A stretch of DNA of 31,815 nt from Candidatus Thorarchaeota archaeon (GCA_038893995.1 JAWAQK010000026.1:1-31815), one strand, 5' to 3'; shown: positions 8,306-9,701, counted from the first letter of the stretch. Made by a program: numbers and translations. The notes: generated by a model from the sequence alone, not told the origin.

Positions 8306-8320
8306 GGCAACCTTTATATA
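8306..8320 (+). promoter_or_regulatory. Archaeal BRE/TATA promoter of rpo5
   Basis: GGCAACC followed by TTTATATA (8313-8320), about 47 nt upstream of the ATG in otherwise GC-rich DNA. Confidence 0.7.
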
Positions 8321-8367: not shown

Positions 8368-8928
8368 ATGGTGGACCTTCCGGAAACTGTAGTCAAGACC
8401 AGAGCGATGCTGATGCTGCGGGGCTACACCGTTGATGAACTGTTTGAGTACGAGGATCACTACAGGATGTACCCCGTCAAGAAGTCCGGGGACGATATCA
8501 TCAAGTCGGTAGTGTGGATACTCAAACAGCCCACTGTCATAGGAGTGGCCACTATAAAGGACATCGAGGAAGTCATGGAGGAGATCTCCGCGCAGGAGGG
8601 TGTTCTTGTTGGGGGAACCAGGTACACTCCCTCGGCCAAGAAACGAGCAAAGCTTGTGAGAATCGAGCTAGTGGAGGGCACATACTCATCCTTTGACCTG
8701 TTTCAGCATGAGCTTGTGCCGAAGCACGTGATTGCCAGTGAGGAGGAGGTGCAGATGGTCCTGGACCACTACAGGATAAGCAAGTCTCAGCTTCCTCGGA
8801 TACTCAAGGACGATCCTGTAGCGAAGATGCTGGGAGCGAAGGTGGGTCAAGTACTTCGCATCGAGAGACCCAGTGAGACTGCCGGCGTTACGTTCTATTA
8901 TCGTCTTGTAGTTGATGGATCGAGATGA
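8368..8928 (+). CDS. rpo5: DNA-directed RNA polymerase subunit Rpo5/RpoH, long form with an RPB5-like N-terminal jaw domain
   Basis: C-terminal HELVPKH...SQLPRILKDDPVAKMLGAKVGQVLRIERPSETAGVTFYYRLVV is the Rpb5_C signature. The extra ~105-aa N-terminus contains MLMLRGY, VIGVATIK and YTPSAKK. Confidence 0.96.
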   Translation: MVDLPETVVKTRAMLMLRGYTVDELFEYEDHYRMYPVKKSGDDIIKSVVWILKQPTVIGVATIKDIEEVMEEISAQEGVLVGGTRYTPSAKKRAKLVRIELVEGTYSSFDLFQHELVPKHVIASEEEVQMVLDHYRISKSQLPRILKDDPVAKMLGAKVGQVLRIERPSETAGVTFYYRLVVDGSR

Positions 8929-8936
8929 TCCTCGGC

Positions 8937-9701
8937 CTATATCAGACCCATGTACAATGTGATGACATACATCACAATCGTTGTTCCGAACGGAACGGTC
9001 AGGTTGTCCGTTCCCTTTGGACTGACGAACTCAATGAGAGTCCCTGCAATGGCACCGGACAGTGGCAGAAGGACAAGTGGCAGATAGAGAATCGATCCCC
9101 CCGGCGCGAGGACTCCATAGTTCCAGACTGCAAAGAACAGCGTTGCGACCTGTGCACCAATGTAGCCAAATACTAGGAGCGCCAGAGAGCCGCACAGAGA
9201 CCTCTTGGAGCCGAGTATCCTATAGCAGTGCCCGCCTCCATACTTCATTCCGATGGGTGCTGACATCCCGTCTCCTATCATCATTATGTGAATCCCAGCG
9301 GCGCCCAGAAAATAGTACTGTTCGTTGCCGGTGAATGTAAAGAGCGCAGTTATGATGGTTATGGATACAGCGTACCAGAGCGACCCCCTTACGCTTCCAT
9401 GTTCGAGGTCCTCTGGCCTTGCCATAGCGTGGAAGAACCTCCCGAATCTCTCTGCGGTCATTACTGTCAGCATGATGACAAAGAGCAAGGCGACAAACGT
9501 GGCCACCCACGCATGAGTATAGTACGGGACTGTCCAGATTGCGCCTCCTGCAAAGAGGTGGATGATCTTCCTTGTGAAGTCTGAACCAAGTTCAAGCCTT
9601 CGCCTCCCAAGGTCTCCGACTGTCAGGACGAGGAGAGCGTAGGCAACTGCAATCACGAACACGGTCAGGTCGTTGAGGTCAATCGCCAGTTCCAACTGCA
9701 A
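8937..9701 (-). CDS. CTP-dependent polyprenol/dolichol/phytol kinase (SEC59/DGK1/VTE5 family)
   Basis: TRKIIH, IGDGMSAPIGMKYG, KRSLCGSLA, EFVSPKGTDNLTVP motifs in a multi-TM protein. Confidence 0.9.
   Translation of the reverse strand: MQLELAIDLNDLTVFVIAVAYALLVLTVGDLGRRRLELGSDFTRKIIHLFAGGAIWTVPYYTHAWVATFVALLFVIMLTVMTAERFGRFFHAMARPEDLEHGSVRGSLWYAVSITIITALFTFTGNEQYYFLGAAGIHIMMIGDGMSAPIGMKYGGGHCYRILGSKRSLCGSLALLVFGYIGAQVATLFFAVWNYGVLAPGGSILYLPLVLLPLSGAIAGTLIEFVSPKGTDNLTVPFGTTIVMYVITLYMGLI

Follow-up and report, generated by a model that had tools for sequence, protein, structure and literature searches.

The window analysed here is a stretch of 31,815 nucleotides from a Candidatus Thorarchaeota archaeon (GCA_038893995.1, JAWAQK010000026.1:1-31815), in which the gene rpo5 (rpoH) encodes a protein of 186 amino acids (Table 1). 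This gene stands alone. Its upstream neighbour, carried on the opposite strand, encodes an EamA-family transporter, and the 369-nt intergenic region common to these two divergent genes contains the TATA-box-like sequence TTTATATA, a candidate archaeal promoter for a monocistronic rpo5. Downstream, a hydrophobic protein for which no Pfam family was found at E <= 0.001 converges on rpo5, and beyond it lies a MoCF_biosynth (CinA-like) gene. Since the orthologues of Thorarchaeota rpo5 share the same MV(D/E)LP start, the start codon of the 186-aa frame is right. Among public sequencing runs, the stretch was found in two independent metagenome runs, both of DNA and from one hot-spring study, and no RNA run containing it is listed.

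Table 1. Positions of the features at the rpo5 locus, counted from the first nucleotide of the window
Feature	Position	Strand	Basis or remark
TATA-box-like TTTATATA	8313..8320	+	48 nt upstream of rpo5 ATG, read from the sequence
rpo5/rpoH CDS	8368..8928	+	ATG start, 186 aa + stop
N-terminal domain, residues 1-106, predicted Mrr-type PD-(D/E)XK fold	8368..8685	+	model and profiles
TPSA motif T87-P88-S89-A90	8626..8637	+	aligned to human RPB5 MTPSAKQ (phmmer, N-only profile)
C-terminal assembly domain Rpb5_C (PF01191), residues 109-181	8692..8910	+	Pfam match
254-aa hydrophobic protein, converging on rpo5	8937-9701	-	ORF

The original prediction had described a protein carrying the motifs MLMLRGY, VIGVATIK, GVLV and YTPSAKK ahead of about 75 residues of canonical Rpo5, and both parts of this description hold. 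The four motifs are all present in the translation and in that order (residues 14-20, 57-64, 78-81 and 86-92). The C-terminal domain is matched by the Pfam family RNA_pol_Rpb5_C over its whole profile (positions 1-73/73, E 1.4e-28, 98.9 bits for a cut-off of 23.5) and by the NCBIfam RpoH equivalog NF007129 at residues 108-183 (102.7 bits, cut-off 83). Compared by Foldseek to archaeal Rpo5 chains, it gives TMt values of 0.81-0.88 with 40-55% identity. A six-frame search of the genome (2.33 Mb, 91% complete) revealed a single gene bearing an Rpb5_C domain, the one at 8368-8928. The genes rpoB (1121 aa), rpoA' (885 aa) and rpoA'' (402 aa) are found together on contig 2, apart from rpo5. In other archaea, the position upstream of rpoB is that of rpoH; in this genome, neither rpoH nor an rpoH relic was found there. 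Given one Rpb5_C match genome-wide and no rpoH at rpoB, the two-domain gene must supply polymerase subunit 5, and the 186-aa protein is thus, as far as gene content tells, the sole Rpo5 (RpoH) of the genome, in a long two-domain form. The only frame in the ~1.3 kb upstream of rpoB (contig 2, L093:6201-7487) has 70 codons and a TTG start.

The length of this protein could have a trivial origin, i.e., a mis-assembly, or the upstream extension of a short rpoH that starts at an internal methionine. Some public annotations point this way. The GenBank 'RpoH' entries of several Thorarchaeota (P0095-P0100) have 106-116 aa and have their start placed at an internal Met, that of GMLVGG or of MEE, which drops about 80 residues of the N-domain. 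However, such truncated gene calls would halve a beta-strand of the N-domain fold, and independent assemblies show the 186-aa frame uninterrupted and conserved. Its best database relatives are ~100 protein clusters of 178-193 aa, with 55-73% identity, which are called 'Candidatus Thorarchaeota RpoH' where the source gives a name, and the two-domain form is present in 40 of 43 genomes from the family to which the window belongs. Moreover, for the four Thorarchaeota orthologue pairs with an estimable synonymous distance, dN/dS amounts to 0.03-0.09 in the N-domain and in the C-domain alike, so that purifying selection acts on the two with equal strength, and the AF2 model of the N-domain alone reaches a pLDDT of 94.8. 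By their conservation, their predicted order and their selection, the N-terminal 106 residues are no chance extension of the frame. Considering also that two independent metagenome runs contain the stretch, an artefact is hardly conceivable.

Full-length comparisons are carried by the C-domain, and for this reason we cut out the N-domain for separate tests. An N-only profile was built from 35 sequences, i.e., the window and 34 loci of Thor, Heimdall, Hod, Wukong and Bathyarchaeia genomes, in which R18, G59, T87, E100 and L101 are invariant from Thorarchaeota to Bathyarchaeia. Used as a single sequence against PDB sequences, the N-domain of the window gave no relevant match, and the relation described below is detected by profiles only. 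Run against 177,635 PDB sequences, the N-only profile matched 11 distinct RPB5 proteins of animals, plants and fungi (best E 1.2e-7), which are the sole matches up to E 0.03; further matches appear from E 0.22, and no nuclease was found at E < 10. The comparison of the archaeal N-domains to ten eukaryotic RPB5 by HHalign gave a probability of 96.5% (E 9e-10) over 81 columns, with LRGY/DRGY at one end and TPxAK at the other and all of them inside the eukaryotic N-domain, and a re-aligned set gave 97.6% (E 3.5e-12). By phmmer, the window protein and human RPB5 form one alignment (residues 47-181) that spans both domains with small gaps only. The helical insert of ~25 residues that eukaryotic RPB5 carries between helix 1 and the sheet is gapped in the archaeal N-domains, by HHalign as well as by MAFFT. 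Hence, at the profile level and with the C-domain excluded, the archaeal N-domain and the eukaryotic RPB5 jaw are homologues.

The Pfam families give a different picture. An HMM search had been proposed as a check in the original prediction, and its two halves came apart: Mrr_cat (PF04471) matches all 35 archaeal N-domains (best 1e-11), as does NA-iREase1 (PF22722) for 34 of them, whereas RNA_pol_Rpb5_N (PF03871) matches none of the 35 at E <= 0.1, nor the window protein at E <= 1. With the window protein, Mrr_cat scores 19.7 bits on the whole sequence and 21.6 bits on the N-domain alone, for a cut-off of 21, and NA-iREase1 remains below its cut-off of 27 (16.7-18.3 bits). The motifs of eukaryotic RPB5 put forward in support of a jaw have a similar fate. 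They are present, but RGY, VGxxxxK and TPxAK are general Mrr_cat motifs, found in live nucleases too, so that the motif argument identifies the superfamily and not the jaw. In addition to RGY, the window N-domain and the Mrr nucleases have in common VGV..V.EL, FT..A(K/R) and the ending IEL(I/V)(D/E)G.

The predicted structure agrees with the anticipated restriction-endonuclease-like domain. The N-only model presents the order alpha-beta-beta-beta-beta-alpha-beta-alpha-beta and superposes, using VIA-align, on the RPB5 jaws of human, yeast and plants with Z scores of 9-10 over 101-102 of its 106 residues. The same method gives Z 11.1 with the nuclease NucS/EndoMS and Z 10.7 with the Mrr-like AF1548 (PDB 1y88), a tie with the jaw on fold alone, the identity in these alignments being 18-22% to RPB5 vs 7-14% to the nucleases. 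With Foldseek, the N-only model reaches TM 0.63-0.68 with RPB5 vs 0.53-0.61 with the other matches, and the identities are also highest for RPB5. The fold search of the N-domain alone was rejected as a test for a jaw, the jaw being inseparable in this way from NucS, AF1548, AspBHI and MspJI. As for the full-length model (pLDDT 88), its best 35 Foldseek matches are all full-length RPB5 (TMq 0.75-0.79), and classical archaeal Rpo5 chains cover its C-domain alone. We give this full-length superposition modest weight, because AlphaFold may have learned the domain arrangement of RPB5 from solved polymerases. As modelled, the N-domain would thus have the PD-(D/E)XK fold of the jaw and, with this modest weight, the two domains would be arranged as in RPB5.

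We then compared the catalytic positions of this fold to those of live Mrr nucleases (GDGGID / GIDL, VQCK). R33 takes the place of the metal-binding Asp in the window protein and I51 that of the E/Q, K53 being kept, so that the D...(E/Q)xK signature of the Mrr nucleases is broken. These substitutions are kept across Thorarchaeota. In Heimdall/Hod-type forms and in eukaryotes alike, a Pro stands at the position of the lost catalytic Lys, the very Lys that Thorarchaeota keep, and the metal-binding Asp is kept in some Heimdall-type and Cys-family relatives. Read from these residues, the N-domain is a catalytically disabled Mrr-type restriction-endonuclease domain; since the acidic residue and the E/Q of the catalytic site are gone, it is expected to bind nucleic acid without cutting it. 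It also differs from the Mrr nucleases in having no DNA-recognition or winged-helix partner and in being fused to a polymerase subunit.

One could nevertheless imagine an active nuclease or defence module carried along by Rpo5, which would form no jaw at all and might, for instance, cut DNA that the polymerase encounters and that is invading or modified. The marginal Mrr_cat match of the window, the K53 kept in Thorarchaeota and the Asp kept in the relatives just mentioned would fit such a module. On the contrary, R33 and I51 occupy catalytic positions and are conserved as substitutions across Thorarchaeota, the protein is the sole Rpo5 of its genome and is under the strong purifying selection of a core subunit, and defence genes are usually patchy in their distribution, unlike a form found in nearly every genome of the family. 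We regard this module as highly improbable and retain a disabled domain.

In human Pol II, the TPSA motif of RPB5 touches downstream DNA (PMC6690254). It is conserved in the window Rpo5 and is followed by a basic helix, with a net charge of +5 over residues 86-99. TPSA is also present in some Mrr nucleases and is thus not exclusive to jaws. By analogy with RPB5, we infer that TPSA and the basic helix are the predicted downstream-DNA contact of the archaeal Rpo5.

The long form is widespread in Asgard archaea. We drew 201 Asgard genomes evenly, and 195 of them gave an Rpo5 match. In 21 of the 27 families sampled (about 141 genomes), Rpo5 has two domains. Named records of the long form come from Thor-, Hermod-, Heimdall-, Hod- and Wukongarchaeota, as well as from about 28 Bathyarchaeia loci. 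The six remaining families (about 54 genomes), which include the largest non-Thor family and one with 1.4-Mb genomes, have only the short form, in a frame of 81-125 aa. In all six of the genomes examined, this short rpoH lies directly upstream of rpoB, in the classical operon position, unlike the monocistronic rpo5 of the window, which is away from rpoB-rpoA. Within 1.5 kb of the short rpoH, no separate N-domain ORF was found in six Asgard genomes. Some proteins go further and carry two or three jaw-type domains in tandem before one Rpb5_C, connected by lysine-rich linkers, e.g., P0144 (481 aa), P0192 (436 aa), P0195, P0207 and P0239; in the Asgard families f14 and f26, the open frames of such tandem-domain Rpo5 reach 432-500 aa.

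Several other arrangements were observed during this survey. Many genomes of the window's family have two adjacent full-length two-domain rpo5 genes (G192:C3:4321-5508, G046:C19:28813-30002, G080:C32:8001-9178 and others), the window genome having one. A paralogous family of 190-283 aa (P0164, P0172, P0176, P0179, P0182, P0183, P0185, P0197 and P0200) has the same dead-nuclease N-domain without Rpb5_C, and carries instead a Cys-rich C-terminal module with the conserved motifs C..KCG.IPK....C.G and Y.C..RL.SDNA.FH. In Pfam, these paralogues match Mrr_cat and NA-iREase1 only, and in the N-domain tree they intermix with one Bathyarchaeia-type Rpo5 group. In P0186 (561 aa), the Rpb5_C of a two-domain Rpo5 is split by an insert of ~365 residues that matches Cpn60/TCP-1 (thermosome-like), which may be genuine or may reflect a chimeric assembly. 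A contig binned with a bacterium (L074, DATKWY010000300.1, labelled Candidatus Desulfaltia sp.) also bears a Bathyarchaeia-type two-domain rpo5 and is probably archaeal DNA placed in the wrong bin. Finally, one short rpoH match, in a complete-looking Asgard genome (L084, G012:C1:519674-519895), contains one in-frame TAG.

The archaeal and eukaryotic two-domain proteins could result from one fusion or from two, and this was approached by asking to which group the N-domains are closest. Against 1.84 billion representative proteins, the N-only profile gave 1343 matches, of which the best are two-domain Rpo5 proteins, followed by intact Mrr nucleases at 45-50 bits; the eukaryotic RPB5 of the PDB score at most 35 bits with this profile, below the live Mrr nucleases. 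The HHalign scores follow the same line: the archaeal N-domain scores 124 with Mrr (99.6% probability) and 69 with the eukaryotic N-domain. Taken group by group, the archaeal N-domains score 94-102 with live Mrr, 92-111 among phyla and 45-67 with eukaryotes. On these scores, live Mrr nucleases resemble the archaeal N-domain in sequence more than the eukaryotic jaw does. The order is another one when the eukaryotic domain is the starting point. The eukaryotic N-domain scores 51 with Mrr in HHalign, against 67 with the Heimdall-type and 69 with the archaeal N-domain, and the HMM of the eukaryotic N-domain gives a median of 18.5 bits for archaeal Rpo5 N-domains and 11.0 bits for sampled Mrr nucleases (Mann-Whitney p 1.6e-7, a value overstated since the rows are mutually related). 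By these measures, the archaeal N-domain is a slowly evolving intermediate, from which the eukaryotic jaw is less distant than from the nucleases.

The Thorarchaeota form is, on profile scores, not the nearest to eukaryotes, since the Heimdall/Hod-type scores higher (67 vs 45). The view of this locus as a pre-eukaryotic full-length RPB5 should be adjusted in this respect. The two-domain organisation and the profile homology support it, but the Thorarchaeota protein has no helical insert and is not the closest archaeal form.

The phylogeny of the N-domain was established on 79 of 119 rows, leaving out P0160, P0165, P0186 and P0171 (long-branch), 18 near-duplicate archaeal rows and 18 of the 33 Mrr rows. 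As outgroup, it has only those Mrr relatives that lie closest to the archaeal profile. In the maximum-likelihood tree, the eukaryotic clade falls within a set of Heimdall, Hod and Wukong sequences, and the split between this set with eukaryotes and the Thor, Bathy, Cys-rich paralogue and Mrr sequences has a support of 92/95. A topology in which eukaryotes branch outside every archaeal N-domain was not rejected by the AU test (p = 0.21). In the full-length tree, eukaryotes stand on a long branch beside divergent unnamed sequences, with no clear sister group.

These results also bear on convergence, in which archaea and eukaryotes would each have joined an Mrr-like domain to Rpo5/Rpb5, making the archaeal domain an analogue of the jaw and not its ancestor. 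Such convergence would account for archaeal N-domains that are about as close to live Mrr as they are among themselves across phyla, and much further from eukaryotes, for their place under Mrr_cat and not Rpb5_N in Pfam, and for the AU result and the lack of a clear sister group in the full-length tree. It would have to produce, however, the same domain order with a near-identical junction spacing, a whole two-domain model that superposes on RPB5, and a eukaryotic jaw that resembles archaeal Rpo5 N-domains more than it does the sampled Mrr nucleases. It would further leave to chance the nesting of eukaryotes among Heimdall/Hod-type forms in the maximum-likelihood tree, the Pro that these forms and eukaryotes have in common at the lost catalytic Lys, and the presence of the fusion in the very archaea among which the ancestry of eukaryotes is placed. 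We consider two independent fusions unlikely. The original prediction had named two outcomes as speaking against it, a failure of the N-domain to superpose on the jaw and a grouping with independently fused Mrr nucleases; neither was found. Given the identical domain order, the unbroken alignable junction and the phyletic position of Asgard archaea, one fusion event common to archaea and eukaryotes is the most economical reading of the sequences and, although the AU test leaves the alternative unrejected, we hold it with good confidence.

This long form changes the usual contrast between archaeal and eukaryotic subunits. The archaeal Rpo5 was expected to be short and the eukaryotic RPB5 to have about 210 aa, and this is what the solved chains show (77-84 aa vs 205-230 aa). 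The window protein, with its 186 aa, resembles canonical archaeal Rpo5/RpoH (PDB 8cro_H, 4qiw_H, 7ok0_H, 2waq_H) by its C-domain, its RpoH equivalog match and its sole copy, and differs from it by the extra N-domain of 106 residues. It resembles the eukaryotic RPB5 taken as reference (205-235 aa, PF03871 + PF01191, e.g., PDB 1dzf, 8uhd_E, 7vba_E) by the succession of a predicted inactive PD-(D/E)XK domain and an assembly domain with a contiguous alignable junction, by the TPSA motif and by the whole-protein model, but it lacks the helical insert and the PF03871 match, and the identity of its N-domain remains low. Eukaryotic Rpb5/RPABC1/POLR2E is common to Pol I, II and III; hence, it serves three polymerases, and the window Rpo5 serves one. 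In published work, archaeal Rpo5 is described without a jaw and the jaw as eukaryote-specific (PMC6690254, PMC2675907), and a census of the PD-(D/E)XK superfamily assigns Rpb5_N to Eukaryota alone (PMC3424549). The Thorarchaeota Rpo5 is modelled in a 2026 survey of archaeal small-subunit domains, but the extra domain goes unmentioned there. In the literature within reach of our search, which leaves aside subscription journals and the supplementary ESP tables of Asgard papers, the long archaeal Rpo5 is not described. It may have gone unnoticed because some public gene calls truncate rpo5.

Overall, we think it likely that this protein is a sole, long Rpo5, whose domesticated Mrr-type N-domain serves as an RPB5-like jaw, and that it stems from a single archaeal fusion inherited by eukaryotes. 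In this protein, the C-terminal 75-80 residues are, by family membership, the universal archaeal/eukaryotic assembly domain, and would be anchored on the largest subunit, at Rpo1'', by a docking proposed from solved polymerases. The N-terminal 106 residues would be a domesticated Mrr-type domain, able to bind nucleic acids without cleavage and, from its homology with RPB5, would lie as a lower 'jaw' beside the clamp head, touching the downstream DNA that enters the cleft. Its surface of contact with Rpo1 would be small. There, the TPSA loop and the basic helix would sit on the downstream duplex and may stabilise the open and elongation complexes. In Sulfolobales, the jaw locus is occupied instead by Rpo13, which, unlike the window N-domain, is a separate helix-turn-helix subunit with no sequence or fold relation to it.

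A historical scenario can be proposed from these elements. The nuclease domain would have joined Rpo5 in a single archaeal event, no later than the Asgard ancestor, Bathyarchaeia also having the fusion, and the fused gene would have left the rpoH-rpoB-rpoA operon. Eukaryotes would then have inherited the two-domain gene, and their jaw would have diverged fast and gained its helical insert. The jaw of eukaryotic polymerases thus probably arose in archaea. In its complete form, which we put forward with somewhat less assurance while still judging it fairly probable, this scenario makes the lower jaw of Pol I, II and III an archaeal invention: a disabled Mrr-type defence nuclease, welded onto Rpo5 before the Asgard radiation, moved out of the operon with the fused gene and passed by vertical descent to eukaryotes. 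The polymerases of Asgard archaea and Bathyarchaeia would already be jawed, and Lokiarchaeia-like and Odin-like families would have lost the jaw or never gained it.

The jaw of eukaryotic polymerases contacts downstream DNA and binds TFIIB, HBx and RSC. A long Rpo5 in most Asgard families would remove one of the few points of architecture that still set archaeal RNA polymerase apart from Pol II, and would add an item of the transcription machinery to the eukaryotic signature features that can be traced to Asgard archaea. It offers for the jaw a concrete origin, which would be a domesticated Mrr nuclease, and it would make the function of the jaw testable in a system with a single polymerase.
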